This document shows, piece after piece, positions 25,087-58,972 of a stretch of 64,000 bases of DNA. The stretch comes from a virus. The translations under genes and the position numbers were made by a program. Numbering within the stretch: position 1 is the first letter of the stretch; the number at the start of each line of letters is the position of its first letter. The stretch is taken from IMG/VR virus record IMGVR_UViG_3300010370_005113, positions 6,919 to 70,918 of that record; one strand, given 5' to 3'. Under the pieces are notes generated by a model. It ran no database searches. It was not told the DNA's origin and saw only the letters and a list, made by a program, of their open reading frames with translations.

Positions 25087-27015
25087 ATGGCTATTAAGAT
25101 TAATAATACCACTGTTATTGATGATAACAGGAATGTACAAAACGTTGGTGTTTTAACAGTAACCACGTCAGCAGTTGTAGGGTCTGCAGTTACTGTTAAT
25201 TCTTCTGGTATTAATGTTGCGGGAGTTGTAACTGCAACAAGTTTTGTTGGAGACGGAAGTAATTTAACTGGTATTGCTGCAGGTGGTGGAGGAAGTTTTA
25301 ATACAAACATCAGTGCTTCTAGTGGAAGTCCTGTAACCACTTCAATGGCGAATGTTTATGCTGCTCCTGGTCCTACTCCTGTTTTTCTTGTTTGGGGTAC
25401 AAATAGTAATGGACAATTAGGACAAAATACTACAACATATCAATCATCACCAGTACAAATTCCAGGAACCACATGGAGTTCTATAAGTGGTAGTGGTGAT
25501 CATTCATTAGCAACCAAAACTGATAATACTTTATGGTCATGGGGTTATAACAATCGAGGTCAATTAGGACAAAATAATAGAACACGATATTCATCACCAG
25601 TACAAATACCAGGAACCACATGGAGTTCTATAAGTGGTGGACAACAATATTCATTAGCAACCAAGACTGACGGAACACTGTGGGCATGGGGTAGTAATCA
25701 AAATGGACAACTAGGACAAAATACTACAACTGATCGTTCATCACCAGTACAAATACCAGGAACCACCTGGAGTTCTATCAGTGGTGGTAATAGTTTTTCA
25801 TTAGCAACGAAAACCGATGGAACCTTATGGTCATGGGGTTTTAATAGTATCGGACAACTAGGACAAAATAATGCAGGCACCGGTGGCGGTGGTGGAGATA
25901 CCAACAGTTATTCATCACCAGTTCAAGTTCCAGGAACCACATGGAGTTCTATAAGTGGTGGTAATGGTTATTCTTTAGCAATCAAAACTGATAATACTTT
26001 ATGGATATGGGGTGATAATGGTAATGGGCAATTAGGACAAAATAATAGAATAGATCGCTCATCACCAGTACAAATACCAGGAACCACATGGAGTTCTATA
26101 AGTGGTGGCGGTAGCCTTTCATTAGCAAAAAAAACCGATGGGACCTTATGGTCATGGGGTCTTGGTACTTCGGGACAATTAGGAATAAACGTTACAACAA
26201 GTCGTTCATCACCAGTTCAAATACCAGGAACCACATGGAGTTCTATCAGTGTTGATGCTGTTTATTCATCAGCAACCAAAACTGATGGAACTTTATGGGC
26301 ATGGGGTCGTAATCAAAATGGACAACTAGGACAAAATAATGCAACATATTATTCATCACCAGTCCAAATACCGGGAGTTACATGGAGTTCTCTAGGTACT
26401 GGTGCTGATCATTCCTTAGCAGTTAAATCCAACACTGGTATTACAACATCAAATGCAAGATTTATTGTTCACTCAATTCATGTAACAAATATTGATGGAA
26501 CCACAAGTGCTGATATCAGTGGTCAAATGTATGGTGAATATTCTATTGCAAATACCATTCCAGTTCCTGCAGGTTCTTCTGTTGAACTTCTTAAGCAACC
26601 TAAGGTTCTCAATCCAGAAGGTGTAATTCAACTTCAAGCAAGTGCAACAAATAGTCTACATGCAACTATCACAGTTGAACAAAAACTTAATGATACGACT
26701 TATGTTGGTGTAGGAACTGATATTACTACAGCAGCAACTTATACTGACCTTTGGACTGCAACAGCAAACTCAATGCTTCAGGGTATTCTTCTTGCAAATG
26801 ATGATGGAACTGCAGATGTAAAAGCAAGAGTTGTGTGGACTGATGGAAGTAATAATATTCAAGGATATTATGCTTATGATATGACCATTCCTGCTGATGC
26901 GACAGTAGAAGTACTTGAACAACCGAAGTATCTTCCAAATGGATATAAGGTTCGTGTTTATGCAAACCAAGCAAACAGATTAGAAGCTATCTTATCTGCT
27001 AGAACCATCGCTTGA
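25087..27015 (+). CDS. Fibre-associated protein with inserted 7-blade RCC1/BLIP-II propeller
   Basis: Seven SSPVQ-containing repeats between a GDGSNLTG fibre motif and two tandem C-terminal beta domains. Confidence 0.85.
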   Translation: MAIKINNTTVIDDNRNVQNVGVLTVTTSAVVGSAVTVNSSGINVAGVVTATSFVGDGSNLTGIAAGGGGSFNTNISASSGSPVTTSMANVYAAPGPTPVFLVWGTNSNGQLGQNTTTYQSSPVQIPGTTWSSISGSGDHSLATKTDNTLWSWGYNNRGQLGQNNRTRYSSPVQIPGTTWSSISGGQQYSLATKTDGTLWAWGSNQNGQLGQNTTTDRSSPVQIPGTTWSSISGGNSFSLATKTDGTLWSWGFNSIGQLGQNNAGTGGGGGDTNSYSSPVQVPGTTWSSISGGNGYSLAIKTDNTLWIWGDNGNGQLGQNNRIDRSSPVQIPGTTWSSISGGGSLSLAKKTDGTLWSWGLGTSGQLGINVTTSRSSPVQIPGTTWSSISVDAVYSSATKTDGTLWAWGRNQNGQLGQNNATYYSSPVQIPGVTWSSLGTGADHSLAVKSNTGITTSNARFIVHSIHVTNIDGTTSADISGQMYGEYSIANTIPVPAGSSVELLKQPKVLNPEGVIQLQASATNSLHATITVEQKLNDTTYVGVGTDITTAATYTDLWTATANSMLQGILLANDDGTADVKARVVWTDGSNNIQGYYAYDMTIPADATVEVLEQPKYLPNGYKVRVYANQANRLEAILSARTIA

Positions 27016-27027
27016 TAGGAGGATATT

Positions 27028-28137
27028 ATGCCGACAACTAGAAGAGGTGTATGGGATTTACAACAGGTAAGAGACCAATATCTTGCTGGTGAGTGGGAAC
27101 AAATTAATCAATTATGGTCCTGGGGTCAAAATAGTTCTGGACAATCAGGACAAAATAATACAACACAATATTCATCACCAGTACAAATATCAGGAACTAC
27201 ATGGAGTTCTATAACAGGTAGTATAATACACTCATTAGCAACTAAAACTGATGGAACTCTGTGGGCATGGGGATCTGGGGCAAATGGAAGAATGGGTCAA
27301 AATGATACAGTACAATATTCATCACCAGTACAAATACCAGGAACAAATTGGAACAGAATTAATTCTATTGGAGGGAACAGTATAGCAACCAAAACCGATG
27401 GAACTTTATGGACATGGGGCGCTAATAACGGAGCACTAGGACAAAATACCACAACATCACAGTCATCACCAGTTCAAGTTCCAGGAACTACATGGAGTTC
27501 AATTGATGCTGGTAACGGTTATTCATTAGCAACCAAAACTGATGGAACTTTATGGGGGTGGGGCCTTAATCAATTTGGAGAGTTAGGACAAACTAATACA
27601 ACAAGATATTCATCACCAGTACAAATACCAGGAACTACATGGAGTTTTGTGAGTTCTGGACGAGATAATTCATCAGCAACCAAAACTGATGGAACTTTAT
27701 GGTCATGGGGACAAAACGCTTATGGACAACTAGGACAAAATAATACAACACAATATTCATCACCAGTGCAAATTCCAGGAACCACATGGAGTTCTATAAG
27801 TGCTGGGTATAGACATAATTTAGCAACTAAAACTGATGGAACCTTATGGTCATGGGGGTATAATAATTCTGGTGGATTAGGACAAAATAATCTAACATAT
27901 CGTTCATCTCCAGTACAAATACCAGGAACCACATGGAGTTCTATAAGTGCTGCAGATAGAAATTCATTAGCAACCAAGACTGATGGAACCTTATGGTCAT
28001 GGGGTCGTAATATTGTTGGAGAATTGGGACAAAATAATCTAACATATCGTTCATCTCCGGTACAAATACCAGGAACCACATGGAGTTTTATTGGTGGTTA
28101 TAATCATTCATTAGCAATCAAATCTCTCATCAACTAA
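27028..28137 (+). CDS. RCC1/BLIP-II repeat protein (7 blades) with short GVWxL N-terminal peptide
   Basis: Seven ATKTDGTLWxWGxNxxGQLGQN...SSPVQIPGTTW-type repeats; AGGAGG RBS. Confidence 0.9.
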   Translation: MPTTRRGVWDLQQVRDQYLAGEWEQINQLWSWGQNSSGQSGQNNTTQYSSPVQISGTTWSSITGSIIHSLATKTDGTLWAWGSGANGRMGQNDTVQYSSPVQIPGTNWNRINSIGGNSIATKTDGTLWTWGANNGALGQNTTTSQSSPVQVPGTTWSSIDAGNGYSLATKTDGTLWGWGLNQFGELGQTNTTRYSSPVQIPGTTWSFVSSGRDNSSATKTDGTLWSWGQNAYGQLGQNNTTQYSSPVQIPGTTWSSISAGYRHNLATKTDGTLWSWGYNNSGGLGQNNLTYRSSPVQIPGTTWSSISAADRNSLATKTDGTLWSWGRNIVGELGQNNLTYRSSPVQIPGTTWSFIGGYNHSLAIKSLIN

Positions 28138-28883: not shown

Positions 28884-30020
28884 ATGATTACAAGTACTAC
28901 GAGTGGTGTTTGGGAACTTGATGATGTTTACGCAAAGAGAAATGCGGAAAGGTGGAGACCTGATGGGGTTGGTTTGTTCGCATTTGGTAATAATGCTAAC
29001 GGACAATTAGGACAAAATAGTAGAGTATCACAATCATCACCAGTTCAAATACCAGGAACCACATGGAGTTCTATAAGTAGTGGTTTTAGTCACTCATTAG
29101 CAACTAAAACCGATAACACTTTATGGGCATGTGGGTCTAATAGTAATGGGGGATTAGGACAAAATGCAGTAGCATCACGTTCATCACCAGTACAAATACC
29201 AGGAACTACATGGGATACGTTAGGTACTGGATATTTGTATTCATTCTCAACAAAGAGTGATGGAACCTTATGGTCATGGGGTTATAATAGTAGAGGTCAA
29301 TTAGGACAAAATAATACAATACAATATTCATCACCAGTACAAATACCAGGAACCACCTGGAGTAGAATTGAAGCAGGAGTTTATCTTTCTCTTTCCGCTA
29401 TTGCAAAAAAAACTGATGGAACCTTATGGTCATGGGGTTATAATAATAACAATGAGCTTGGATTAAATGATTCTACCCCACGTTCATCACCAACCCAAAT
29501 CCCAGGAACAACGTGGAACAGCATAAACACGGGATATTATCACTCGTTAGCGACCAAGACTGATGGAACCTTATGGTCATGGGGATATAATAATAAAGGT
29601 CAACTTGGACAAAATAATGGAACTGGTTATGGGTCACCCAGACAAATACCAGGAACTAATTGGAGTTCGGTATCTGCCGGTTATTATAGTTCATTAGCAA
29701 CCAAGACGGATGGTACTTTATGGTCATGGGGATATAATAATAGTGGACAACTAGGACAAAATAATATAACACTATATTCATCACCAGTTCAAATTCCAGG
29801 AACTCAATGGAGCCTTACTATTTTGGAAAGTGGATATAATAATTGTGCAGCAATAAAAAATGATAATACCTTGTGGACATGGGGATCAAATGGTAATGGA
29901 CAATTGGGATTAGGTGATGTAGTAAGTCGTTCATCACCAATACAAGTACCGGGAACTACATGGAGTTCTGTGGGTGAAACTGGTAGCTCTATATTAGCAA
30001 CAAAAAATATCTATTCATAA
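28884..30020 (+). CDS. RCC1/BLIP-II repeat protein (7 blades) with GVWxL peptide
   Basis: Seven repeats counted; N-terminus SGVWELDDV. Confidence 0.9.
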   Translation: MITSTTSGVWELDDVYAKRNAERWRPDGVGLFAFGNNANGQLGQNSRVSQSSPVQIPGTTWSSISSGFSHSLATKTDNTLWACGSNSNGGLGQNAVASRSSPVQIPGTTWDTLGTGYLYSFSTKSDGTLWSWGYNSRGQLGQNNTIQYSSPVQIPGTTWSRIEAGVYLSLSAIAKKTDGTLWSWGYNNNNELGLNDSTPRSSPTQIPGTTWNSINTGYYHSLATKTDGTLWSWGYNNKGQLGQNNGTGYGSPRQIPGTNWSSVSAGYYSSLATKTDGTLWSWGYNNSGQLGQNNITLYSSPVQIPGTQWSLTILESGYNNCAAIKNDNTLWTWGSNGNGQLGLGDVVSRSSPIQVPGTTWSSVGETGSSILATKNIYS

Positions 30021-30602: not shown

Positions 30603-31158
30603 AGGATTTCAGGTGGTTCCCCAGTTTGTACCACCATATTTTGCACAATACTTAAGAAACTATTTTGATTTATTAAGAGTAAATGACCAAATTCCAAACA
30701 AGGGTGATGGTCAAGTTGCAAATTCATTAGGAATTTATGGAAACCCTGCATTTGATATGCTGATGCTCATGTCTCTTCCAATGGTAGAAGAGATTGTTGG
30801 TAAAAAACTTTTACCGACTTATACTTATGCAAGAATTTATTTTAATAATGCAAATCTTCTTCCCCATGTAGACCGAGAAGAATGTGAGCACTCTGTATCT
30901 ATTTCTTTAGGTGGAGATTATGAAGCACTATGGCCTTTATGGTTTAAGAATGGCGATAAAGACCCCGAATATGCTGCAATGGGTCCTGGCGATGCAGTGA
31001 TTTATCAAGGAAATAAGGTTCATCACTGGAGAGATGCCTTTGAAGGAAAGACACAATTTCAAGTTTTCATGCATTATGTGGAAGCAGAGGGAGAATATAA
31101 AGACAAACTCTACGACACACGACCTTATATTGGATTATCTGCTGATACGAAAAAATGA
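30583..31158 (+). CDS. 2OG-Fe(II) oxygenase
   Basis: PTYTYARIY...HVDREECE...GDAVIYQG..VHHWR..QVFMHYV. Confidence 0.8.
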   Translation: MKQYEDKGFQVVPQFVPPYFAQYLRNYFDLLRVNDQIPNKGDGQVANSLGIYGNPAFDMLMLMSLPMVEEIVGKKLLPTYTYARIYFNNANLLPHVDREECEHSVSISLGGDYEALWPLWFKNGDKDPEYAAMGPGDAVIYQGNKVHHWRDAFEGKTQFQVFMHYVEAEGEYKDKLYDTRPYIGLSADTKK

Positions 31159-32456
31159 TTGCACAACTCATTATTGAATTAAGTGAAAAAGGAGAACCAA
31201 AAGCAGCAAAAGAACTAGCAATAGCATATCTCAAACACGAAAAAGATGTTGAGATACTGAACTTGCTTGGAAAACTTCATCATGACGATAAGGAATTTGA
31301 TAAAGCACTGGAATGTATGAATGCACTTCCAGAAAATCCTGCTGTAATCATGAATAAAGCAAAGTGTCTTTATTATCTGAAGAGAGCACCAGAGGCAGAG
31401 AAACTTCTTTATTCACTTCCAAAGCAATATCGTGAAGACCCTTTGGTTCAAATTGATATGACCTTGTATAAAACTGCACAAGGTAAATTTGATGAGAGTA
31501 AGAAAATCCTGAAACCACTTGCTGGTTCATATCCACAAGCAGCATTTAATTATGGGTGGTTTCTGTTGGGTGATGGTGAACTTCAAGAAGGTTACAAATA
31601 CATTCGTGAAGGTGCAAAGTTAAGAGTATGGGGTCATGAATGGTTACTCAAAGAACGTTATGATATTGATAAAGACCAACGATGGAATGGAGAAACCGTA
31701 GACATCATTGCATACTATCTTGAAGGTGGTATGGGTGATGAAATGATTTTTGTTCGTTATGCAGAACAATTCCAGAAATATTGTAAGGAAGTTAAAATCT
31801 TCTGTACTGCTTCCATCAAGAAACTTCTAGAAGATTGTGGTTATGAGAACCTTTATCTTCATGAGGATATTGTAAGAACCAAATGGAATAAGTTTGTTCC
31901 TGCAATGTCTGCTCCTTATTTTCTTGGACTAACTGAACCTTGTGAGAATGTTTCGTTTCCTTACTTAAAGAAGACATCAAATCCAGTTCAAGAAATGCAG
32001 GATATTGCTGGAGACCAGAAAAAGATAGTCATTCGTTGGAAAGGTAATCCACAGTTTGAACATGACCAGTTTCGTAGTATTCCAATTGAAAAACTTCTAG
32101 GATTAGAGAAGTTTGGTCAGTTATTCTCTATTCAAATTGAAGACAGTGACTTACCAAAGAATGCAAATGTATGGGACTTATCCCACTTAATTTCTTCGTG
32201 GAGTGATACTTATGATATCTTTGCAGAGAGTGATTTGGTGATTACTTCATGTACTGCAACGGCTCACTTAGCAGGAGCAATGGGAGCAAAGGTAATCGTA
32301 CTTCCACCATTAGTTCCTTATATTACCTGGGCATCAAATAAGTTTAGTTGGTATCCAGAGAATGTTGTCGTTGTTCAGCAGATGGAGTATAATAACTGGG
32401 ATAAGACGATTGAAAAACTTTATGGAGTAGTTGAGAATGCAATATCAAACTCATGA
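31155..32456 (+). CDS. TPR-domain GT9-like (heptosyltransferase-fold) glycosyltransferase
   Basis: N-terminal TPR-like helices; EGGMGDEMIFVRY and DLVITSCTATAHLAGAMG motifs. Confidence 0.85.
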   Translation: MIAQLIIELSEKGEPKAAKELAIAYLKHEKDVEILNLLGKLHHDDKEFDKALECMNALPENPAVIMNKAKCLYYLKRAPEAEKLLYSLPKQYREDPLVQIDMTLYKTAQGKFDESKKILKPLAGSYPQAAFNYGWFLLGDGELQEGYKYIREGAKLRVWGHEWLLKERYDIDKDQRWNGETVDIIAYYLEGGMGDEMIFVRYAEQFQKYCKEVKIFCTASIKKLLEDCGYENLYLHEDIVRTKWNKFVPAMSAPYFLGLTEPCENVSFPYLKKTSNPVQEMQDIAGDQKKIVIRWKGNPQFEHDQFRSIPIEKLLGLEKFGQLFSIQIEDSDLPKNANVWDLSHLISSWSDTYDIFAESDLVITSCTATAHLAGAMGAKVIVLPPLVPYITWASNKFSWYPENVVVVQQMEYNNWDKTIEKLYGVVENAISNS

Positions 32457-33734: not shown

Positions 33735-34865
33735 ATGCCGATAAGACAAAATACCTGGGACTTAAAAGGACATTATGACTTAACCAATAGTGGGCAGAAT
33801 GCTTATTTGGGTGCTCCTATTTTATTTGCTTGGGGACAAAATGGTAAGGGACAACTAGGACAAAATAATACAACATATCGTTCATCACCAGTCCAAATAC
33901 CAGGAATTACCTGGGGTTCTATAAGTATTGGATATTTTAACACGTTAGCAACCAAAACCGATGGAACCTTATGGTCATGGGGATATAATAATCTTGGAGC
34001 ATTAGGACAAAATAATAGAACATATTATTCATCACCAGTACAAATACCAGGAACTACATGGAATTCTGTTAATAGTGGTTATCATTCATTAGCAACAAAA
34101 ACTGACGGAACTCTATGGGCATGGGGTAGTGGTACTTGGGGACAACTGGGACAAAATAATGGAACATCATATTCATCACCAGTACAAATTCCTGGTACTA
34201 CATGGAGTTCTGTGCGTATATCTAATGAACATTCATTAGCATCAAAAACTGACGGAACTTTATGGGCATGGGGTAATAATTTATTTGGTCAACTAGGACA
34301 AACTAATACAACAAGATATTCATCACCAGTTCAAATACCAGGAACCACATGGAGTTCCATAAGTACTGGTGCTGCTAGTACACTTAATGCTCTTGTATTA
34401 GCAACCAAAACTGATGGAACTTTATGGTCATGGGGATCTGGTACTTCGGGACAGCTAGGACAAAACAATGTGGTATCACGATCATCACCAGTCCAAATAC
34501 CAGGAACCGCATGGAGTTCTATTAGTGCTAGTAGTTCTGGACTTCATTCATTAGCAACCAAAACTGATGGAACCTTATGGTCATGGGGTCTTAATCAGTA
34601 TGGACAACTAGGACAAAATAGTAGAGTATCACAATCATCGCCAGTACAAATTCCTGGTACTACATGGAGTTCCATCGGTGCTGGTGGTTATGATGCATTA
34701 GCAACTAAAACTAATAATACTTTATGGTCATGGGGAGAAAATATCTATGGACAATTAGGACAAAATAATACAACAAATATATCATCACCAGTACAAATAC
34801 CAGGAACTCAATGGACTTCTATGAGTATTGCGTATAGAAGTTCTTTTGTACTACAACAACAATAA
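33735..34865 (+). CDS. RCC1/BLIP-II repeat protein (7 blades) embedded in the enzyme cluster
   Basis: Seven repeats; N-terminal NTWDL peptide; AATAAATA at 33701-33708. Confidence 0.9.
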   Translation: MPIRQNTWDLKGHYDLTNSGQNAYLGAPILFAWGQNGKGQLGQNNTTYRSSPVQIPGITWGSISIGYFNTLATKTDGTLWSWGYNNLGALGQNNRTYYSSPVQIPGTTWNSVNSGYHSLATKTDGTLWAWGSGTWGQLGQNNGTSYSSPVQIPGTTWSSVRISNEHSLASKTDGTLWAWGNNLFGQLGQTNTTRYSSPVQIPGTTWSSISTGAASTLNALVLATKTDGTLWSWGSGTSGQLGQNNVVSRSSPVQIPGTAWSSISASSSGLHSLATKTDGTLWSWGLNQYGQLGQNSRVSQSSPVQIPGTTWSSIGAGGYDALATKTNNTLWSWGENIYGQLGQNNTTNISSPVQIPGTQWTSMSIAYRSSFVLQQQ

Positions 34866-45142: not shown

Positions 45143-45479
45143 TTGGGTGCCTAAGGGTTGGGGCGGAGAAAAAATCATCTGTAATGGTGAAGAATACTGC
45201 GGTAAACTTTTATACTTTGTAAAAGGCAAGAAGTGCTCCTTTCATTATCATAAACTCAAGGACGAAACCTTTTACATTCAATCAGGTAAAATTCTTCTCA
45301 AATACAGTGATGAAGATGACCTTGCAAATGCACTTGAAGTTGTTCTAAACCCAGGTGATAAGTTTCATATCTATCGTGGATTGAGACACCAAATGATTGC
45401 ATTGCAAGACACAGAGCTCTTTGAGTTCTCTACTCAACACTTTGATGATGATAGTTATAGATTAATTCATGGCGACTGA
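45126..45479 (+). CDS. Cupin-fold sugar isomerase-like protein
   Basis: VPKGWG.E, CSFHYHKLKDETF, LRHQM, EFSTQHFDDDSYR. Confidence 0.75.
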   Translation: MTSSIDWVPKGWGGEKIICNGEEYCGKLLYFVKGKKCSFHYHKLKDETFYIQSGKILLKYSDEDDLANALEVVLNPGDKFHIYRGLRHQMIALQDTELFEFSTQHFDDDSYRLIHGD

Positions 45480-48722: not shown

Positions 48723-50309
48723 ATGTCTCAACAAAAGGCACAAATCATTTCACCAATTGATACATTTACTACTCCAGGTCTCAACGTAACTGGTGTAGTA
48801 ACTTCAACGTCTTTTGTTGGTTCTGCAACTGGAACTGCAACAGGTCTTGCAAGTACAACTCTTAATATCAGTGCTGGTATCGTAACTGCAACAACACTTT
48901 ATGGTTCTGGTGCAAGTTTAACTGGTGTTGCTCAAACTGCTTTTGTTGGTCAAAGTACAACTTCACAATCACCTACAACAACCATTAACTTATCATTAGG
49001 TAATGTAATTTATTTCACTCATAATACTGATACTACTGTTGCTTTTGCGAGTACTGATACAGTAGAGAAAGTCAAGTTTATTAGAATTAAAGACGCAACA
49101 ACAACTGCAAGAAATATTACATGGCCTACAAATGTTTATTGGAATAATGGAACTGCTCCAACGTTAATTAATAATCCAAGAACCACAGCAGCACAAACAT
49201 TCAATCTTACAACCAGAGATGGTGGAGTGACTTGGTATGCTTATCAGGAAGTGAATAGTAATCCACAGACATTGAGTTTGTTCTCATGGGGATATAATGG
49301 TTATGGACAACTAGGACAAAGTAATCTAACACAATATTCATCACCAGTTCAGATACAAGGAACTACATGGAGTTCTATAAGTAGTGGTCGAAGTCATTCA
49401 TTAGCAATCAAAACTGATGGAACTTTATGGGGATGGAGTCTCAATACTGGGGGACAACTAGGACAAAATAATATAACACTATATTCATCACCAGTACAAA
49501 TACCAGGAACCACATGGAGTTCTATAAGTTTATCAAAAAGTAATCAATGGAGCATGGCGACCAAAACTGATGGAACTTTATGGGTATGGGGACTAAATGG
49601 TTTTGGACAACTAGGACAAAATAACGTAACATATTATTCATCACCAGTACAAATACCAGGAACCACATGGAGTTCTATCAGTAGTGGTAACGTTCATTCA
49701 TTAGCAACCAAAACTGACGGTACTTTATGGTCATGGGGTTATAATGCTCAAGGACAACTAGGACAAAACAACAGAACACATCGTTCATCACCAGTACAAA
49801 TACCAGGAACCACATGGAGTTCTATCAATAGTAATAACTTTCATTCATTAGCAACCAAGACTGATGGAACATTATGGTCATGGGGTTATAATTTTTATGG
49901 ACAACTAGGACAAAATAATAGAACATATCGTTCATCACCGGTACAAATACCAGGAACTACATGGAGTTCTATAAGTGGTGGTAACGTTTATTCATTAGCA
50001 TCTAAAACTGACGGAACTTTATGGTCATGGGGTTTTAATAGTGATGGAAGATTAGGACAAAATAATACAACACAATATTCATCACCAGCACAAATACCAG
50101 GAACCACATGGAGTTCTATCAGTGGTGGTTCTAATTTTTCATTAGCAATGAAAACTGATAATACCTTATGGGCATGGGGGCAAAATACTAATGGAAGATT
50201 AGGACAAAATAGTACAACATATTATTCATCACCAGTTCAAATTCCAGGAACTACATGGAATTCTATTAGCGGTGGTGAACAACATTCATTAGCACTCAAA
50301 CAAGAATAA
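48723..50309 (+). CDS. Fibre-anchored RCC1/BLIP-II protein (7 blades)
   Basis: Same architecture as 47104-48705; CATAAATA at 48701-48708. Confidence 0.9.
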   Translation: MSQQKAQIISPIDTFTTPGLNVTGVVTSTSFVGSATGTATGLASTTLNISAGIVTATTLYGSGASLTGVAQTAFVGQSTTSQSPTTTINLSLGNVIYFTHNTDTTVAFASTDTVEKVKFIRIKDATTTARNITWPTNVYWNNGTAPTLINNPRTTAAQTFNLTTRDGGVTWYAYQEVNSNPQTLSLFSWGYNGYGQLGQSNLTQYSSPVQIQGTTWSSISSGRSHSLAIKTDGTLWGWSLNTGGQLGQNNITLYSSPVQIPGTTWSSISLSKSNQWSMATKTDGTLWVWGLNGFGQLGQNNVTYYSSPVQIPGTTWSSISSGNVHSLATKTDGTLWSWGYNAQGQLGQNNRTHRSSPVQIPGTTWSSINSNNFHSLATKTDGTLWSWGYNFYGQLGQNNRTYRSSPVQIPGTTWSSISGGNVYSLASKTDGTLWSWGFNSDGRLGQNNTTQYSSPAQIPGTTWSSISGGSNFSLAMKTDNTLWAWGQNTNGRLGQNSTTYYSSPVQIPGTTWNSISGGEQHSLALKQE

Positions 50310-50321: not shown

Positions 50322-51902
50322 ATGTCCCAAACGAAAGCACAATTAGTACAACCAGTAGGAATATTCACAGCACCAGGAGTGAATGTCTCTGGAGTATTAA
50401 CTGCTTCATCGTTCTCTGGAAATCTTACAGGTACAGTCACAGGACTTACAACAACTGCAAATATTACTGTTGGAGTACTGACTGCTACAAGTTTCTTTGG
50501 TTCTGGTGCAAATCTTACTGGTATTCCTGCTGGTGCTTATGTTGGTCAAAGTACAACATCACAATCACCAACAACCACAATTGATTTGAGTTTAGGTAAT
50601 GTAATTTACTTTACACATAATACGAATACTACTGTTGCTTTTGCAAACACAAGCACAACACAGGAAGTTCGTTTTATTCGTACAAAGGACGATACTGGAA
50701 CAATAAGAACAATTACATGGCCCTCAAGTATTATTTGGGATGGTGGAAGTGCTCCTGTTTTAAGAAATAATGCAAAGAGTACTGATGCTCAAATCTTTAA
50801 TCTAACGACTAGAGATACTGGAGTAACTTGGTATGGTTATCAAGAGTTTGTTTATAGTCCTGGTGATGTTTTGTTCTCGTGGGGAGTTGGTACTTCGGGA
50901 CAACTAGGACAAAACACTGCAGTATCCACATCATCACCAGTACAAATACCTGGTACTACATGGAGTTCTATAAGTGGTGCTATTTTTCATTCATTAGCAA
51001 CCAAAACTGATGGAACTTTATGGTCATGGGGTGATAATACTTATGGGCAAGTAGGTCAAAATAATAGAACATATTATTCATCACCAGTACAAATACCAGG
51101 AAATACATGGAGTTTAATATCTTCTGTGCAAACTCATTCATTAGCAAGAAAAACTGATGGAACTTTATGGTCATGGGGATATAATTCTTATGGAGCACTA
51201 GGACAAAATAATACAACACAATATTCATCACCAGTACAAATACCAGGAACCACCTGGAGTTCTATCAGTGGTGGTAATAGTTTTTCATTATCAACCAAAA
51301 CTGATGGAACTTTATGGTCATGGGGTACTGGTGCTAGTGGAAGATTGGGACAAAATGATACAACATACTATTCATCACCAGTACAAATACCAGGAACCAC
51401 CTGGAGTTCTATAAGTGCTAGTGGTAATAGTTTTTCATTAGCAACCAAAACTGATGGAACTCTATGGTCATGGGGTCAAAATGGTAATGGAGCATTAGGA
51501 CAAAATAATAGAACATATTATTCATCACCAGTACAAATACCAGGAACTACATGGAGTTCTATAAGTAGTGGTGGTGGTACTCATTCATTAGCAACCAAGA
51601 CTGATGGAACTTTATGGACATGGGGTAATAATAGTGCTGGACAACTAGCACAAAATAATAGAACACAATATTCATCACCAGTACAAATACCAGGAACCAC
51701 ATGGAGTTCTGTAAGTGGTGGTGGTCAACATTCATTATCAACCAAAACTGATGGAACTTTATGGTCATGGGGTACTGGTGCTAGTGGAAGATTGGGACAA
51801 AATGATACAACACAATATTCATCACCAGTACAAATACCAGGAACCACATGGAGTTCTATCAGTGGTGGTACTCAGTACTCATCAGCACTCAGATCATCCT
51901 GA
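50322..51902 (+). CDS. Fibre-anchored RCC1/BLIP-II protein (7 blades)
   Basis: Same architecture; AATAAATA at 50305-50312. Confidence 0.9.
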   Translation: MSQTKAQLVQPVGIFTAPGVNVSGVLTASSFSGNLTGTVTGLTTTANITVGVLTATSFFGSGANLTGIPAGAYVGQSTTSQSPTTTIDLSLGNVIYFTHNTNTTVAFANTSTTQEVRFIRTKDDTGTIRTITWPSSIIWDGGSAPVLRNNAKSTDAQIFNLTTRDTGVTWYGYQEFVYSPGDVLFSWGVGTSGQLGQNTAVSTSSPVQIPGTTWSSISGAIFHSLATKTDGTLWSWGDNTYGQVGQNNRTYYSSPVQIPGNTWSLISSVQTHSLARKTDGTLWSWGYNSYGALGQNNTTQYSSPVQIPGTTWSSISGGNSFSLSTKTDGTLWSWGTGASGRLGQNDTTYYSSPVQIPGTTWSSISASGNSFSLATKTDGTLWSWGQNGNGALGQNNRTYYSSPVQIPGTTWSSISSGGGTHSLATKTDGTLWTWGNNSAGQLAQNNRTQYSSPVQIPGTTWSSVSGGGQHSLSTKTDGTLWSWGTGASGRLGQNDTTQYSSPVQIPGTTWSSISGGTQYSSALRSS

Positions 51903-51929
51903 TATAAATACTCAAAAAGTATACAGATA

Positions 51930-54191
51930 ATGGCTCTCAATTTTCCAGACAGTCCATCACTTAATCAAATCTATACAGATAATACTTCTGGGTTCTCTTA
52001 TCAATGGAACGGAACTGTATGGATTAGTTATTCTGCAGCATCATCAAATAACATCAAAACTCTTGATGATATCAGTGCTTCATTCAACAGTTCAACAACC
52101 ATTTTTTCATTAACATCTGGTGGTACTGCAGTTACACCAGCATCTCCACAACAACTGATTATCAGCGTTGGTGGTGTAATGCAAAGTCCAAACACTGACT
52201 ATTCAGTGTCTGGTTCTAATATTATCTTCACAACTGCACCACAATCTGGATTAACATTCTTCGGAACTCTGATTGGACCTGCAGTTCCTGTTGGTGTTTC
52301 AACGGTTGGTGAAGTTTATCGTCGTCAATCTTATGCAGTCACTGGTGTACAAACATCATTCTCATTCCCTGCTGGTTATACTGTTGGATATCTGGAAGTT
52401 TATCGTAATGGTGTAAAACTGATTTCTGGTGATGACTTTACTGCGACTGATGGAAGTTCATTTAGTTTAACAACACCAGCACAGAATGGTGATGATGTAG
52501 AAGCAACAGGATACATCACATCAGCAATTGCAGTTACGAATGGAAATCTTACTGACCTTTTAGTTAATAATAATGCTAGAGTTCTTGGTATCACAACTCT
52601 TGGTATTAATGTTGGTGCAGGACAAACCGCATTAACTGTCCAAGGAAACGCAAGAGTTACTGGTATTCTGACTGTTGGTTCTTCTAGTTTAACTTTAAAT
52701 GGAGACACCAATCAAATTAATGGAGTTACAATCAGTGCTGGTGTTGTAACTGCTACAAGTTTTTCTGGTAGCGGTTCAGGATTAACTGGTATTGTAACCA
52801 GTGTAAATCCTGTTGGTCAATCAACAACATCTCAAGCAGGAACTACTACAATTAATCTAAGTTTAGGTAGTGTAATCTACTTTACTCATAATACTGATAC
52901 CACTGTTGCTTTTGCAAATACCGCAACAACTCAAGAAATTACATTTATTAGAACAAAAGATAATACAACAACTGCTAGAGCAATTACATGGCCATCTAAC
53001 ATTTATTGGGATAATATTGATGCACCTACACTACAAAACGAAGGAGCAACAAGAAATGCACAAACTTTTAGTTTCACAACTCGTGATGGTGGAGTAAGTT
53101 GGGTTGGTTATGAAGTTCAAAGAAATGCTGGTATCGGTACTTATATGTATGTTTGGGGGAATGGGGCATCAGCACGATTAGGACAAAATAACACCACCAC
53201 ATCTTTCAATTTACCAAAGTTATTTGAAAACTCAACTATATGGTCCAATATATCATTTCTAACGACTACAAATGCATCATTAGCAACTAAAACTGACGGA
53301 ACTTTATGGGCATGGGGAGCTAATACTTCTGGAGTATTGGGACAAAATACTACAACAAGTTTTTCATCACCAATACAAATACCGGGAACCACATGGAGTT
53401 CTATAAGTGGTGGTACAACTCATTCATTAGCAACCAAGACTGATGGAACTTTATGGTCATGGGGTACTAATAGTGGTGGACAACTAGGACAAAATACTAC
53501 AACAAGTTTTTCATCACCAATACAAATACCGGGAACCACATGGAGTTCTATAGATGGCGGCAATGCTTTTTCATTAGCAACCAAAACTGATGGAACTTTA
53601 TGGTCATGGGGTACTAATACTAATGGACAACTAGGTCAAAATGCTATAACATCACAGTCATCACCAGTACAAATACCAGGGACCACATGGAGTTCTATAT
53701 CTATTGGTTATAATCATTCATTAGCAACCAAGACTGATGGAACTTTATGGACATGGGGTTTTGGTAATAGCGGAAGATTAGGACAAAGTGCTACAACATC
53801 ACAATCATCACCAGTACAAATACCAGGAACAACGTGGAGTTCTATAAGTAATATCGGACCATTAGCAATTAAAACTGATGGAACACTATGGTCATGGGGT
53901 TATAATGCTCAAGGACAATTAGCACAAAACAATAGAACACAATATTCATCACCAGTACAAATACCAGGATCCACATGGAGTTCTGTAAGTAGTACTGTTG
54001 GTAGTGTAACTGGTACTAACGTTTCAGTATTAGCAAAAAAAACTGATGGAACCTTATGGGCATGGGGAAATAATGGTAATGGAATATTAGGACAAGGTAA
54101 TTCAACATACTATTCATCACCAGTTCAAATACCAGGAACCACATGGACTAGACCAATATCTGGTAGTGCAGCATTCAAAACTATCACATAA
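51930..54191 (+). CDS. Multi-domain fibre protein with C-terminal RCC1/BLIP-II propeller (first blade divergent)
   Basis: MALNFP...YQWNGTVW fibre N-terminus, LDDIS..FN domain, VIYFTHN domain, seven repeats; TATAAATA at 51903-51910. Confidence 0.88.
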   Translation: MALNFPDSPSLNQIYTDNTSGFSYQWNGTVWISYSAASSNNIKTLDDISASFNSSTTIFSLTSGGTAVTPASPQQLIISVGGVMQSPNTDYSVSGSNIIFTTAPQSGLTFFGTLIGPAVPVGVSTVGEVYRRQSYAVTGVQTSFSFPAGYTVGYLEVYRNGVKLISGDDFTATDGSSFSLTTPAQNGDDVEATGYITSAIAVTNGNLTDLLVNNNARVLGITTLGINVGAGQTALTVQGNARVTGILTVGSSSLTLNGDTNQINGVTISAGVVTATSFSGSGSGLTGIVTSVNPVGQSTTSQAGTTTINLSLGSVIYFTHNTDTTVAFANTATTQEITFIRTKDNTTTARAITWPSNIYWDNIDAPTLQNEGATRNAQTFSFTTRDGGVSWVGYEVQRNAGIGTYMYVWGNGASARLGQNNTTTSFNLPKLFENSTIWSNISFLTTTNASLATKTDGTLWAWGANTSGVLGQNTTTSFSSPIQIPGTTWSSISGGTTHSLATKTDGTLWSWGTNSGGQLGQNTTTSFSSPIQIPGTTWSSIDGGNAFSLATKTDGTLWSWGTNTNGQLGQNAITSQSSPVQIPGTTWSSISIGYNHSLATKTDGTLWTWGFGNSGRLGQSATTSQSSPVQIPGTTWSSISNIGPLAIKTDGTLWSWGYNAQGQLAQNNRTQYSSPVQIPGSTWSSVSSTVGSVTGTNVSVLAKKTDGTLWAWGNNGNGILGQGNSTYYSSPVQIPGTTWTRPISGSAAFKTIT

Positions 54192-55753
54192 TGTCCATCC
54201 ATAACACTCTAGCAGGATTTGCAACATTTATCTCGCCAATCAACAACTTAAGTGTTGGTGTGGTGACTGCTACTCAACTTTATGGAGATGGGTCATCAAT
54301 CACCAATGTTGGTCTTGGAACAACCTCAAGTATCAACACTTCAGGTATTGTAACGGCTTCAAGATTTTCTGGTGATGGTTCTGGTCTGACTGATGTTGGT
54401 GGTTATCTTGCTGGGTTGATTTATTCTCCAGCAGTTGGAGAAACAAACGTAGGTCTTTCAAGCAATATTTCAATTACATTCAATAAACACATCATTGCAG
54501 GTGTTGGTACAATCACTCTAAGAACTGGAAGTGCATCAGGAACGATTGTTGAAAGTTTTAATGTTGGAACCAGTAGTTCAATCAGCATCAGTGGAGCAAC
54601 ACTTACAGTTAATCCAACAAATAACTTAAGTGGATTAACAACTTACTATCTTGTAGTTCCTGCAAATACAGTTGAAGATACTTTTGGTACTGGCGGAAAT
54701 CTTGGTATTACAAGTTATTCTTTTACTACACAAAATTTTATCTATCCTTTGTTTAGTTGGGGTCGTAATAATTTTGGTGAATTAGCACAAAATAATACAA
54801 CACAATATTCATCACCAGTACAAATACCAGGAACCACCTGGAGTTCTATCAGCGCCGGTGGTGGTAATACATTAGCAACCAAAACTGATGGAACCTTATG
54901 GTCGTGGGGTCGTAATGATGCTGGTCAACTAGGTCAAAATAATAGAACACAATATTCATCACCAGTACAAATACCAGGAACCACATGGAGTTCTATAAGT
55001 GGTAGTAGTCAATCTTCATTAGGAACCAAAACTGATGGAACTTTATGGTCATGGGGTGCTAACGGTAGTGGACAACTAGGACAAAACGCTGTAGCAAACC
55101 GATCATCACCAGTACAAATACCCGGAACTACATGGAGTTCTATCAGTGGTAGTGGTGTTTTTTCATTAGCAACCAAAACTGACGGAACTTTATGGTCATG
55201 GGGATCTAATAATAACGGACAACTAGGACAAAATAATGGAACGCAATATTCATCACCAGTACAAATACCAGGAACCACATGGAGTTCTATAAGCGGTATA
55301 GCAGCAACTAAAACTGATGGAACTTTATGGGCATGGGGTTATAATCTTTATGGACAACTAGGACAAAATAATAGAACATATTATTCATCACCAGTACAAA
55401 TACCAGGAACCACATGGAGTTCTGTAAGTTATTCCGTTGCAACCAAAACTGACGGAACTTTATGGTCATGGGGGCAAAATGGTCAAGGACAATTAGGACA
55501 AAATAATAGAACATATTATTCATCACCAGTACAAATACCAGGAACTACATGGAATTCCATTAGTGCTGGTGGAAATTTTTCATTAGCAACCAAAACTGAT
55601 GGAACTTTATGGTCATGGGGTTATAATGCTCAAGGGCAACTGGGGCAAAGTGACGCAACAACACAATATTCATCACCAACCCAAATACCAGGAACTACAT
55701 GGAATTTTGTAGATGCTAATGCCTTTTATTCATTAGCAACCAAAGCCGAATAA
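54191..55753 (+). CDS. Ig-like (SbsA/Big_5-type) plus RCC1/BLIP-II protein
   Basis: YSP..GETNV....ISITFNK...G.GTITLR...YYLVVP...SFTT, then seven repeats, two with shortened loops. Confidence 0.88.
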   Translation: MSIHNTLAGFATFISPINNLSVGVVTATQLYGDGSSITNVGLGTTSSINTSGIVTASRFSGDGSGLTDVGGYLAGLIYSPAVGETNVGLSSNISITFNKHIIAGVGTITLRTGSASGTIVESFNVGTSSSISISGATLTVNPTNNLSGLTTYYLVVPANTVEDTFGTGGNLGITSYSFTTQNFIYPLFSWGRNNFGELAQNNTTQYSSPVQIPGTTWSSISAGGGNTLATKTDGTLWSWGRNDAGQLGQNNRTQYSSPVQIPGTTWSSISGSSQSSLGTKTDGTLWSWGANGSGQLGQNAVANRSSPVQIPGTTWSSISGSGVFSLATKTDGTLWSWGSNNNGQLGQNNGTQYSSPVQIPGTTWSSISGIAATKTDGTLWAWGYNLYGQLGQNNRTYYSSPVQIPGTTWSSVSYSVATKTDGTLWSWGQNGQGQLGQNNRTYYSSPVQIPGTTWNSISAGGNFSLATKTDGTLWSWGYNAQGQLGQSDATTQYSSPTQIPGTTWNFVDANAFYSLATKAE

Positions 55754-55765: not shown

Positions 55766-57367
55766 ATGTCCAAAGCTTCCAATCTTGCTGGATTTATTAC
55801 AAGCATTGTTCCATCAAACAATCTCAATCTTGGAGTTGCAACAGCATTCAGTTGGGTTGGAAGTGGACTTAACTTAACTGGTGTTGGTTTTGGAACCACA
55901 GGAAGCATCAACACCACAGGAATTATCACAGCAACTAAGTTTGTTGGAAGTGGAATAGGACTTACAAACATTGGAGATGGTGGACTTGCTCCAATCACTT
56001 ATAGCCCAGGAATTGCAGTAACGAATATAGATTTACCAACGAATATTGTTCTCACCTTTAACAAACCAATTCAGGCAGGTGTTGGAACTATTACAATCAG
56101 GTCTGGAAGTGCATCAGGGACGATTATTGAAAGTTATGATGTTGGTATTAGTACTCGTTTAAGTATCAGTGGTGGAGTATTAACAATCGATCCCGTAAAT
56201 AATTTGAGTGTGGGAACAACTTATTATGTTGTATTTCCAGAAGGTGCATATAAGGACATTCTGAATAGTTCTTCAAGTGTTGGTATTAGTACTTATTATT
56301 TTGTTACAAGAGGGTACACTTATTCTTTGTTTACTTGGGGTCTTAATCAATATGGAGAATTAGGTCAAAACAATAGAGTATCACAATCATCACCAGTACA
56401 AATACCAGGAATCACGTGGAGTTCTATCAATGCTGGTGGTGCTCATTCATTAGTAACCAAAACTGATGGAACTTTATGGTCATGGGGATATAATGGTAGA
56501 GGACAACTAGGACAACTAAACAGAGCAAATTATTCATCACCAGTTCAAATACCAGGAACCACATGGAACATTGCAAGTGGAGGAAATGAACATTCATTAG
56601 CAACCAAAACTGATGGAACCTTATGGGCATGGGGAGATAATTCTCAATCAAATGATCAGGGACAGTTGGGCCAAAATAATACAACAAATTATTCATCGCC
56701 AGTACAAATACCAGGAACTACATGGAGTTCTCCTCATGCTTGTACTTTTGATAGTTTAGTAAAAAAAACTGATGGAACTCTATGGGCATTTGGTGGAAAT
56801 GCTTATGGACAATTAGGACAAAATAATAGAGTAAAATATTCATCACCAGTACAAATACCAGGAACCACATGGAGTTCTATCAGCGGTTCATATCACATAT
56901 TAGCAACTAAAACCGATGGAACTTTATGGGCATGGGGACGTAATCATAGAGGACAATTAGGACAAAATAATAGAACATACTATTCATCACCAGTACAGAT
57001 ACCAGGAACCACATGGAGTTCTATTAATTCTTGTCTTTATCATTCAATAGGGAAAAAGACTGATGGAACTTTATGGGGATGGGGTAATAATAATGATGGA
57101 AATCTTGGACAAAATGATGTAACACAATATTCATCGCCCGTGCAAATACCGGGAACCACATGGAGTTCTGTCGGTGGGGGCAAAGGAGGCAATTATTCAT
57201 TAGCAACAAAAACTGACGGAACCTTATGGTCATGGGGTATTGGTTCTAATGGAAGATTGGGACAAAATGCAACAACAAGCAGTTCATCACCAACACAAAT
57301 ACCAGGGACAACATGGAGTGCTATAAGTGGCGGTACTAATCATATACTAGCAACCAAAGCCGAATAA
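55766..57367 (+). CDS. Ig-like plus RCC1/BLIP-II protein
   Basis: Paralog of 54191-55753; seven repeats. Confidence 0.88.
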   Translation: MSKASNLAGFITSIVPSNNLNLGVATAFSWVGSGLNLTGVGFGTTGSINTTGIITATKFVGSGIGLTNIGDGGLAPITYSPGIAVTNIDLPTNIVLTFNKPIQAGVGTITIRSGSASGTIIESYDVGISTRLSISGGVLTIDPVNNLSVGTTYYVVFPEGAYKDILNSSSSVGISTYYFVTRGYTYSLFTWGLNQYGELGQNNRVSQSSPVQIPGITWSSINAGGAHSLVTKTDGTLWSWGYNGRGQLGQLNRANYSSPVQIPGTTWNIASGGNEHSLATKTDGTLWAWGDNSQSNDQGQLGQNNTTNYSSPVQIPGTTWSSPHACTFDSLVKKTDGTLWAFGGNAYGQLGQNNRVKYSSPVQIPGTTWSSISGSYHILATKTDGTLWAWGRNHRGQLGQNNRTYYSSPVQIPGTTWSSINSCLYHSIGKKTDGTLWGWGNNNDGNLGQNDVTQYSSPVQIPGTTWSSVGGGKGGNYSLATKTDGTLWSWGIGSNGRLGQNATTSSSSPTQIPGTTWSAISGGTNHILATKAE

Positions 57368-57379
57368 ATACTTAAAAAA

Positions 57380-58972
57380 ATGTCTAAGGCATCCAATCTT
57401 GCAGGATTTGTTACTAGTATTGTTCCAATCAATAACTTAAATGCAGGTATCATCACTGCAACAAGTCTTGTAGGAGACGGAACAAATCTTACAGGAATAC
57501 AAAAAGGACTTGGAGCAACTGCAAATTATACAACATCAGGTATCATCACTGCAGGAACTTTTTATGGTGATGGTGGAGGACTTACAAATATTGGTGGAGT
57601 ATTAGAACCAATTACTTATAGTCCTGGTATTGCACAAACAAATGTAGGAATATCATCGAATATTGTTCTTACATTTAATAAGCCAATCAAAGCAAATACG
57701 GGTACAATTACTTTAAGAACTGGAAGTGCATCAGGAACGATTGTTGAGAGTTATGATGTAACTTCAAGCAATAGATTAACGATTAGTGCTGGTGTTTTAA
57801 CGATAGACCCCACTAGTTCTTTTGCAGATGGAACAACTTATTATGTTGTTTTACCTGCTGATGTGTTGAAAGATACGTTTAACACATCATCAAGTGTTGG
57901 TATTAGCACTTATTATTTTACTACCAAATTAACTTTATATTCATTATTTGAGTGGGGTAGCAATTCTTATGGGCAATTGGGGCAAAATAATACAACATAC
58001 TATTCATCACCTGTCCAAATACCAGGAACCACATGGAGTTCTATAGGTGGTGGTGGTTCTCACACATTAGCGACCAAAACTGATGGGACTTTATGGTCAT
58101 GGGGGATTAATAGTTTTGGTACATTAGGTCAAAATGATAGAATAAATCGGTCATCACCAGTACAAATACCAGGAACCACATGGAATGCAATAAGTGCTAA
58201 GAGAAGTGAACATTCACTAGCAACCAAAACCGATGGAACATTATGGTCATGGGGTTATAATTCTAATGGACAACTAGGACAAAATAATGGAACACAATAT
58301 TCATCACCAGTACAAATTGCAGGAACCACTTGGAGTTCTATTGCGGCAACATTAAATCAATCATTAGCAACCAAAACCGATGGGACATTATGGTCATGGG
58401 GTCGTAATGTTGTTGGTCAACTAGGACTTAATGATATAATACCACGTTCATCACCAGTACAAATACCAGGAACCACATGGAGTTCTATTAGTAATGGTGG
58501 TGCTTTTTCACTAGCAACCAAAACCGATGGAACATTATGGTCATGGGGTTATAATAATTCTGGACGACTAGGACAAAACAATATAACACAATATTCATCA
58601 CCAGTACAAATACCAGGAACCACATGGAGTTCTATTAGTAGTGGTGGTGCTTTTTCATTAGCAACAAAAACTGATGGAACTTTATGGTCATGGGGGTTTA
58701 ATTTTCAAGGTCAGTTAGGGCAAAATAATACAACATACTATTCATCACCAATACAAATTCCAGGAACCACATGGAATTCTATAAGTAATGGTGGTGCTTT
58801 TTCACTAGCAACCAAAACAGATGGAACTTTATGGGGATGGGGAAGAGGATCATCTGGTCAATTGGGACAAAATAATACAACATACTATTCATCACCTGTC
58901 CAAATACCAGGAACCACATGGAGTTCTATTAATAGTGGTAGTTATCATTCACTAGCAATCCAACAACAATAA
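57380..58972 (+). CDS. Ig-like plus RCC1/BLIP-II protein
   Basis: Paralog of 55766-57367; seven repeats. Confidence 0.88.
   Translation: MSKASNLAGFVTSIVPINNLNAGIITATSLVGDGTNLTGIQKGLGATANYTTSGIITAGTFYGDGGGLTNIGGVLEPITYSPGIAQTNVGISSNIVLTFNKPIKANTGTITLRTGSASGTIVESYDVTSSNRLTISAGVLTIDPTSSFADGTTYYVVLPADVLKDTFNTSSSVGISTYYFTTKLTLYSLFEWGSNSYGQLGQNNTTYYSSPVQIPGTTWSSIGGGGSHTLATKTDGTLWSWGINSFGTLGQNDRINRSSPVQIPGTTWNAISAKRSEHSLATKTDGTLWSWGYNSNGQLGQNNGTQYSSPVQIAGTTWSSIAATLNQSLATKTDGTLWSWGRNVVGQLGLNDIIPRSSPVQIPGTTWSSISNGGAFSLATKTDGTLWSWGYNNSGRLGQNNITQYSSPVQIPGTTWSSISSGGAFSLATKTDGTLWSWGFNFQGQLGQNNTTYYSSPIQIPGTTWNSISNGGAFSLATKTDGTLWGWGRGSSGQLGQNNTTYYSSPVQIPGTTWSSINSGSYHSLAIQQQ

Follow-up and report, generated by a model that had tools for sequence, protein, structure and literature searches.

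The virus record IMGVR_UViG_3300010370_005113 of IMG/VR is a linear sequence of 70,918 bases with a completeness of 32% according to CheckV. The window analysed here is the 64,000-nucleotide stretch formed by bases 6919–70918 of this record, with a GC content of 0.32–0.40 over its whole length. It contains eleven co-oriented genes, here called g1 to g11, which lie between baseplate and fibre genes and encode seven-bladed propellers of the RCC1 type. On balance, our results make it probable that the eleven genes encode paralogous virion proteins for host recognition in a T4-like, cyanophage-related myovirus, and that each protein binds by one face of a C-terminal propeller.

Eleven genes with seven blades each

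Eleven intact open reading frames (ORFs) on the plus strand between positions 25087 and 58972 each carry an RCC1-like domain (Table 1). All of them pass the Pfam family WD40_RLD (PF25390) with 198–273 bits at a cut-off of 150, with 6–7 RCC1 stretches per gene. Over the full length of the record, PF00415 detects 76 of 77 candidate blades at E <= 0.001, and 75 of 77 score above the cut-off; all 77 candidates fall inside the eleven frames. When the proteins are cut at the conserved turn, each yields seven blades. A reading of this DNA made without database searches (hereafter the sequence-only reading) had counted eleven genes with exactly seven repeats of about 49 amino acids (aa), 77 in total, on at least four different N-terminal anchors. 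Pfam and the blade cutting confirm the count, and the anchors indeed form four classes, g8 carrying a longer form of the third. The repeat length is 49 aa in 45 of the 77 blades, the full range being 41–58 aa. The propeller forms the C-terminal end of the protein in 10 of the 11 genes (all but g1).

Relatives of these genes were collected from IMG/VR, where 304 were confirmed (top identity 54%), and 80 loci were taken from them. These loci contain 139 blade-bearing ORFs, of which 68 have seven blades; low blade counts belong mostly to distant relatives that are poorly detected by the profile. Complete giant ORFs among the relatives have multiples of seven, namely 42 blades in 2228 aa (no gaps), 21 in 1116 aa and 14 in 984 aa. 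Such tandem-propeller giants are found in the related loci L037 (3028–9714), L027 and L007, and in a relative protein of 3670 aa at least 55 blades were detected. The RCC1-type fold closes with seven blades. Consequently, the earlier proposal that the blade number is held at seven by selection is true but describes something ordinary.

Table 1. Propeller genes of the window and the other features discussed in the text
Feature	Position	Strand	Description and evidence
g1	25087-27015	+	Fibre-like N-terminus of ~100 aa, propeller at aa 98-447, 191-aa C-terminal extension; WD40_RLD 238.7 bits, 7 RCC1 stretches
g2	27028-28137	+	Bare propeller with 29-aa leader; Pfam, AlphaFold2 model, Foldseek
g3	28884-30020	+	Bare propeller with 31-aa leader; WD40_RLD 219.9 bits, 7 RCC1 stretches
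g4	33735-34865	+	Bare propeller with 30-aa leader; Pfam 272.8 bits; ATAAATA 33 nt upstream (33702)
g5	47104-48705	+	Fibre-type anchor of ~185 aa and propeller; Pfam
g6	48723-50309	+	Anchor of ~186 aa and propeller; residues 1-72 unstructured as monomer, beta-sandwich at 76-179
g7	50322-51902	+	Anchor of the g6 class (match to g6 E 2.8e-69) and propeller; Pfam
g8	51930-54191	+	406-aa N-terminus made of an extra fibre-like part of ~220 aa and the g5-g7 anchor module, then propeller; TATAAATA at 51903
g9	54191-55753	+	Anchor of ~187 aa with Big_5 immunoglobulin (Ig)-like domain (E 1.6e-12) and propeller
g10	55766-57367	+	Big_5 anchor (E 4.1e-9) and propeller
g11	57380-58972	+	Big_5 anchor (E 2.9e-10) and propeller; WD40_RLD 244.8 bits
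Tail protein	5956-7266		Compared with phage records by tblastn
Baseplate hub with lysozyme	7483-9687		Upstream of the propeller genes; PHROG 1922, E 3.5e-100
Two fibre genes directly upstream of g1	21379-25067	+	PHROG tail fibre and baseplate families; second gene has a Peptidase_S74 chaperone domain (E 9.9e-15); TATAAATA at 21341
Tetratricopeptide repeat (TPR) protein	31155-32456	+	TPR hits in Pfam; conserved neighbour of RCC1 genes; like glycosyltransferase family 9 (GT9) by a language-model lead alone
Sulfotransferase	34890-35723	+	Directly after g4; Sulfotransfer_1 and Sulfotransfer_3
Hld-like genes	43728-47043		Separate HldE-domain-II-like, HldE-domain-I-like and HldD-like genes, below curated cut-offs, with a cupin between
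Fibre-like genes downstream of g11	59663-63326	+	812-aa gene with Mtd_N (E 3.2e-6) at 59663-62101; 309-aa gene with fibre C-terminus; PHROG tail-fibre families

Fold of the propeller and position of the variation

Among the propellers, g2 is the only one that was folded, with an input alignment of 69 propellers. The AlphaFold2 model is a closed propeller of 7 x 4 strands with a predicted local distance difference test (pLDDT) of 95.9 and a predicted template modelling score (pTM) of 0.90. In Foldseek, the best match of the model is UVR8 (E 3e-33, template modelling (TM) score 0.85, root mean square deviation 1.4–1.6); the RCC1-like domains (RLDs) of HERC2 and HERC1, HERC2 RLD2 included, have a TM score of 0.87 and RCC1 itself 0.85. 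UVR8 is also found by sequence search of the PDB with an E value of 9.5e-51. According to DSSP on the model, the four strands of each repeat correspond to the segments TLWxWG, SSPVQI, WSSIS and HSLATK.

The comparison between genomes and the analyses of loop composition, loop codons, sequons, linkage, consensus-A columns and structure-defined column classes were restricted to blades that fit the blade profile over almost their whole length (75 of the 77 window blades, and 963 of all blades detected); the entropy per column described next comes from the blades cut above. High entropy (1.75–3.67 bits) is confined to blade columns 5, 7 and 8 (loop 1), 16, 18 and 19 (loop 2) and 34–39 (loop 3). 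Scaffold columns are mostly below 0.5 bits and all below 1.2 bits, and the motifs between the variable segments are 88–100% conserved. Loops 1 and 2 lie within the long connection from strand 1 to strand 2, loop 3 within the hairpin from strand 3 to strand 4. In an antiparallel meander, successive connections alternate between two faces. Since the 1→2 and 3→4 connections alternate with the 2→3 and 4→1 turns, all three loops belong to the same face, and the other face carries the conserved PGTT and TDGT turns (2→3 and 4→1).

Columns were then partitioned by structure and not by entropy, face X being taken without its fixed GQLGQN motif. The 11 columns of face X have an entropy of 2.48 bits, as compared to 0.35 bits for the 8 columns of the face Y turns and 0.88 bits for the 24 strand columns. 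The ratio of nonsynonymous to synonymous substitution rates (dN/dS) is 1.88 on face X, 0.18 in the face Y turns and 0.45 in the strands; it is a rough figure, calculated by the pairwise Nei-Gojobori method on near-saturated paralogous repeats whose pairs are non-independent. The synonymous rate (dS) is similar in the three classes (0.47, 0.45 and 0.46, respectively), and columns chosen by entropy give a dN/dS result like that of columns chosen by structure. These results fit a propeller in which, as far as the model describes it, the loops of one face would change fast under diversifying selection while the other face would be kept fixed.

The loops are composed mainly of S (16.7%), G (14.5%), Y (13.4%), N (9.4%), T (8.0%) and R (6.8%) and are nearly devoid of Lys, Glu, Pro, Cys, Met and Trp. 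Variation in one loop is hardly linked to variation in another, with correlations of just 0.10–0.12. An N-x-S/T sequon in loop 2 was considered as a conserved feature and dropped: it occurs in 56 of the 75 blades of the window and in 226 of 888 in relatives, and the total number of sequons is 100 as compared to 81 +/- 7.7 in shuffles. Taken together, three statements of the sequence-only reading are borne out by Pfam, the g2 model and the counts: a seven-bladed fold of the RCC1 type, matched here to UVR8; a scaffold that is constant apart from three variable segments in each blade, which strand topology places on one face; and loops rich in Tyr, Ser, Gly and Asn.

Uniformity of the scaffold and the codon pattern of the loops

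The scaffold has a nucleotide identity of 0.86 between blades, and silent third bases are identical in 0.79 of cases; from codon usage, as measured in 30 other ORFs of the window, a value of 0.447 would be expected. It was therefore an overstatement of the sequence-only reading to call the scaffold nearly invariant even in DNA, and yet its silent sites are far more alike than codon usage would predict. Moreover, the scaffold favours codons that are rare elsewhere in the window, such as ATA for Ile and ACC for Thr. Blades are equally distant from one another in all pairings, with a scaffold identity of 0.857 for blades of one gene, 0.860 for blades of the same number and 0.855 for other pairs, so there is no signal that blade k is nearest to blade k of other genes. 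For 10 of the 77 blades the most similar blade lies in the same gene, for 11 it has the same blade number, and for 56 it is another blade.

Comparison of the two halves of the genes is informative. In gene pairs with the same anchor, silent identity is 0.50–0.62 in the N-terminal halves and 0.71–0.86 in the propellers. Since the two halves of a gene were duplicated together, the higher identity of the propellers must reflect homogenisation or replacement at a time after the duplication. Similarity is just as high between propellers that have different anchors. Among 26 related genome groups with 12 or more blades each (near-identical loci merged), 25 have blades that resemble one another more closely than they resemble the blades of the window. 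Common variant sites are unlinked beyond 3 nt (r2 0.02–0.03), and 93% of site pairs show all four gametes.

The loop codons hold their third base (GGT, AGT, GCT, TAT) and vary in bases 1 and 2. More specifically, GGT makes up 98 of 128 Gly codons, AGT 87 of 148 Ser codons and GCT 37 of 49 Ala codons. A fixed third base with changing first and second bases is the look of rapid amino acid replacement on a shallow genealogy. Concerted evolution by exchange between blades is the likely origin of the scaffold uniformity and, combined with diversifying selection on the loops, fits the sequence comparisons given above.

Anchors, fibre genes and promoter-like motifs

Most of the propellers stand behind an N-terminal module. 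The N-terminus of g1 resembles the neighbouring fibre with the S74 chaperone (phmmer E 5e-6). Its C-terminal extension (26428–27012) has no match in Pfam, only E 0.046 as the best value in a sequence search of the PDB, and no counterpart in the 80 related loci. In g5, anchor residues 77–174 match the PHROG families 7760 and 9017, both named tail fiber protein, at E ~1e-8. Residues 43–129 of g8 match PHROG 18673, also a tail fiber protein family (E 1.6e-17), and the first blade of g8 is divergent. Anchor length in the g9–g11 class is about 188 aa. The short leaders of the bare propellers (27028–27114 and 28884–28976 in the window; loci L002, L004, L008, L010, L011 and L031) fall into a few recurring motif classes, of which one, G-V/I-W-x-L/M...W, is common to g2, g3 and several relatives. 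In the AlphaFold2 model the g2 leader forms a helix at residues 11–19.

Residues 1–186 of the g6 anchor were also modelled alone, with a pLDDT of 79.5. Seven fold matches reach Z >= 5, and five of these are phage spike, tailspike or baseplate chains with Z 5.9–7.5, among them the N-terminus of tailspike protein 4 (TSP4) of CBA120 (Z 5.9); the matches are middling, all having Z <8, and Foldseek gives no match at E <= 0.001. Three copies of the anchor folded together have an interface score (ipSAE) of 0.48 as compared to 0.00 for the best control, with the interface at residues 12–71. This mark of 0.48 is reached by 20 of 30 solved pairs and by 1 of 23 single chains, contact agreement between runs being at least 77% and partner pLDDT at least 72; it should be noted that the trimer score comes from an own alignment and three copies, unlike the calibration, and from one anchor class only. 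The prediction suggests that anchors of the g5–g8 class probably trimerise. A search of 1.84 billion representatives gives 655 relatives of the g6 anchor at E <= 0.001, and in all ten long relatives scanned an RCC1 propeller follows downstream of the anchor. In BFVD, RCC1 propellers are found within proteins named tail fibre of the Pseudomonas phages Littlefix and PollyC.

The neighbourhood is that of a tail module. A 1992-aa tail fibre also lies upstream of the propeller genes, besides the baseplate hub. With the tail protein, tblastn finds 238 phage records, 188 of them named Synechococcus phages, with a top identity of 41.9%; the record is therefore taken as a fragment of a T4-like myovirus related to cyanomyoviruses. 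Megablast of the window against phages gives zero matches. Fibres with S74 chaperones stand on both sides of the propeller set. On the downstream side, the 812-aa gene starts with an Mtd_N domain, the N-terminal domain of the Bordetella phage tropism determinant.

The motif ATAAATA, which resembles the late promoter of T4 type, occurs in 20 copies, all on the plus strand, and 16 of these have a start codon no more than 40 nt downstream. Seven of the eleven propeller genes are preceded by it (g4, g5, g6, g7, g8, g10 and g11). Copies lie at 23838, 28143, 33702, 34862, 47070, 48702, 50306, 51904, 55750, 57364, 58969 and 59634, mostly 13–35 nt before the start. The motif often contains the stop codon of the preceding propeller gene, so that the gene end and the next promoter-like site overlap. 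Tail-fibre neighbours, fibre-type anchor domains and late-promoter-like motifs all point to virion fibres, in line with the earlier suggestion of virion adhesins. The alternative offered alongside it, decoys, has no result in its favour.

Enzyme genes between the propeller genes and a cultured relative

Several genes for putative modifying enzymes are interspersed with the propeller genes. For the TPR protein, Pfam reports TPR only and no GT9 domain, and the best E value in a sequence search of the PDB is 0.23. Its Atlas clusters are named GT9, and one viral cluster has Glyco_transf_9 on 15% of its members. Homologues of the TPR protein are present in 26 of 72 related contigs, in 19 of these 26 within 200 nt of an RCC1 ORF. 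The sulfotransferase has homologues in 23 of the 72, again with 19 (of 23) within 200 nt of an RCC1 ORF. The Hld-like genes would form a pathway of ADP-heptose type inside the propeller region, judging by their domain matches.

The same gene order as in the window is found in a cultured phage, Synechococcus phage S-SRM01 (Kyanoviridae): baseplate, distal fibre, RCC1, hypothetical, RCC1, TPR, 2-oxoglutarate (2OG) oxygenase, further genes, RCC1, sulfotransferase, further genes, glycosyltransferase and epimerase. The main text of the S-SRM01 paper makes no mention of RCC1, 'chromosome condensation' or propeller.

Discussion

Fold, blade count, site of the variation, codon pattern, genomic setting and relatives are established by the analyses above. 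How could they be combined? It is probable, on balance, that the propellers are the host-recognition heads of the particle. The binding face of each propeller would consist of some 84 fast-changing positions, about 12 from each blade. Fibre-type N-terminal modules would tie most of the propellers to the particle, and at least the g5–g8 class would probably be attached as a trimer displaying three propellers. Exchange of DNA from blade to blade, within and between the eleven genes, may keep the scaffold uniform, either by gene conversion or by recombination, and selection would keep the codons of the loops different.

Several points weigh against this interpretation. We infer the virion location, the trimer, the binding of host structures and the mechanism of exchange. 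The assignment of loops to one face is a matter of strand-order topology and not of measured coordinates, and the dN/dS and trimer values carry the limits given with them, as do the fold matches of the g6 anchor. Genes g2–g4 have leaders of about 30 aa only, without a recognisable fibre module. Linkage between variant sites is absent even at 4–10 nt, which could also stem from recurrent change at saturated sites and not from exchange. Finally, the genome in hand is a fragment with 32% completeness, and comparison with sequencing data is hampered by the repeats. Four metagenome runs were compared as Logan contigs (31-letter words), labelled X1 and X2 (aquatic), X3 (marine) and X4 (freshwater); habitat labels of runs with a small share were left unused. 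The contigs fragment inside the propellers, which leaves the repeat interior unconfirmed, many joints there uninterpretable and strain-level variation of the loops unreadable.

These broken contigs, together with the origin of the record in a metagenome and the related strains present in other runs, might suggest that the array was created during assembly, by collapse or chimeric joining of repeats of several strains. We regard this as very improbable. All eleven frames are intact with exactly seven blades each, and the architecture recurs in relatives. Exact repeats in the region are at most 82 bases long (blades 4 and 7 of g7), with none reaching 101 bases, so ordinary reads span them. Contigs free of differences from X1 and X2 cross the g5/g6, g7/g8, g8/g9 and g9/g10 junctions; X1 and X2 may be the source sample, and hence these contigs are not independent. 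Still less probable, and largely refuted, is the idea that the variation of the loops is produced by targeted mutation, be it by a diversity-generating retroelement or by some other mutator. A kept third base with varying first and second bases in the loop codons, the Mtd_N domain of a downstream fibre gene and the fact that only 32% of the genome is in hand could be cited in its favour. Against it, no reverse transcriptase is found in the 70.9-kb record (PF00078, 0 matches at E <= 1), and there is no blade-like stretch outside the eleven genes and thus no spare template copy. Columns with consensus A show no excess of change, the values outside the variable columns being 0.201 for A, 0.199 for C and 0.197 for T, and A at fourfold third positions is nearly fixed (TCA in 75 of 77 blades, CCA in 70 of 77).

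Two further explanations concern the function of the propellers. RCC1 and BLIP-II folds are general platforms for protein binding, and the propellers might remain inside the infected cell, where they would bind or inhibit proteins of the host as GTPase regulators, anti-defence decoys or inhibitors of the BLIP-II kind, and not be parts of the virion at all. The bare propellers g2–g4 would agree with this, hypervariable binders would suit an arms race with host defence proteins, and the virion location of the eleven proteins is a matter of inference. We consider an intracellular role quite improbable nevertheless, as 7 of the 11 proteins carry fibre-type or Ig-like N-terminal modules, the genes belong to a fibre module behind late-promoter-like motifs, and 10 of 10 long relatives of the anchor keep the architecture of anchor and propeller. 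In addition, distant RCC1 proteins of phages have been found in virions, according to two papers (PMC11370258, PMC5259590). The other explanation regards the propellers chiefly as carriers of a decoration made by the phage with the TPR/GT9-like enzyme, the sulfotransferase, the 2OG oxygenases and the ADP-heptose genes, in which case contacts would be made by glycan or sulfate and not by the loops. Conservation of the TPR and sulfotransferase genes beside RCC1 ORFs in related contigs, the same order in S-SRM01, the Hld-like genes (even if below curated cut-offs) and the GT9 lead from the Atlas speak for a decoration. On the other side, the TPR protein lacks a GT9 domain in Pfam, the sequon of loop 2 is not conserved in relatives, and the enzymes could act on the host envelope instead. 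Moreover, a dN/dS above 1 in the loops would be left unexplained. Decoration as the basis of contact is thus rather unlikely, if less so than an intracellular role.

A bolder version of the host-recognition reading can be put forward tentatively, as a possibility we would not bet on. The phage may carry a germline 'binder library', in which eleven fibres, at least some of them trimeric, would show 11 different faces; new specificities would arise from short DNA patches copied and pasted among the 77 blades, a combinatorial shuffling that would be comparable to the HNWD repertoire of fungi, and the propellers would be heptosylated and/or sulfated by the conserved TPR/GT9-like enzyme and sulfotransferase beside them before assembly. 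If this is true, it would be a self-diversifying and post-translationally decorated host-recognition system of a kind not described for any virus.

Overall, the adhesin interpretation is plausible and has more support than any of the alternatives. Should the propellers indeed be heads that bind the host, they would be a compact case of a virus keeping a large, fast-evolving recognition set on one rigid scaffold, with a bearing on the way in which cyanophages of aquatic habitats keep up with variable host surfaces. As the cultured relative S-SRM01 has the same module, the system is open to direct tests. The scaffold may also be of practical interest: with 84 tolerant positions on one face of a confidently folded domain of 340 aa, it is a candidate for binder engineering. 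The public labels 'regulator of chromosome condensation' and 'DNA condensation protein' are probably misleading for these genes.

Comparison with known systems

The nearest counterparts are found in large coliphages and their relatives, which like the window have propellers of the RCC1/BLIP-II type in several copies in a myovirus. Under the label 'chromosome condensation', 13 such proteins are listed for 121Q and 6 for PBECO4, and three of coliphage W70 (gp237–239) and gp001 of Cronobacter phage GAP32 are virion components by mass spectrometry (PMC11370258, PMC5259590). The large-coliphage proteins match PHROG 4219, the same family as the window genes, and proteins of GAP32 and PBECO4 are among the BFVD fold matches, with 20–21% identity in the Foldseek rows. 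In the accessible text they are annotated as 'DNA condensation' and described without analysis of loops, faces or blade exchange, and their hosts are enterobacteria. Unlike them, the window has eleven genes on four anchor types. A literature search, for which most subscription journals and supplements were out of reach, retrieved no paper on a variable face or blade exchange in phage RCC1 proteins.

With respect to evolution, the closest parallel is the HNWD family of WD40 proteins (het-d, het-e) in Podospora anserina, for which concerted evolution within and between loci and diversifying selection on residues of the interaction surface are reported (Paoletti, Saupe and Clave 2007, PMC1805685). 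In both cases a multigene family of beta-propeller repeats has a few residues per repeat under selection. The HNWD proteins differ in being WD40 and not RCC1 propellers and in belonging to eukaryotic intracellular receptors of the NLR-like type. Their repeat number is highly variable, whereas it is fixed at seven in all eleven genes here, and their hypermutation by repeat-induced point mutation (RIP) has no counterpart in the window.

As regards the fold, UVR8, the RLDs of HERC2 and RCC1 have the same seven blades as g2, at 28% identity. The GWRHT segment of UVR8, which lies on its interacting face, aligns with variable loop 3. These eukaryotic RCC1-like proteins are single-copy and not hypervariable, and photoreception or nucleotide exchange is not to be expected in a phage.

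The use of many alternative recognition proteins by one particle is reportedly known from the branched tailspikes TSP1–4 of CBA120 and from a Klebsiella phage with many depolymerases. In adhesins of the gp38 type of T-even phages, conserved motifs flank hypervariable segments. The window resembles these systems in having many recognition proteins per particle, if our interpretation is right, and in the conserved DNA blocks that flank variable segments. It differs from these systems in the head itself, which is a beta-helix enzyme or a small adhesin domain there and a propeller here.

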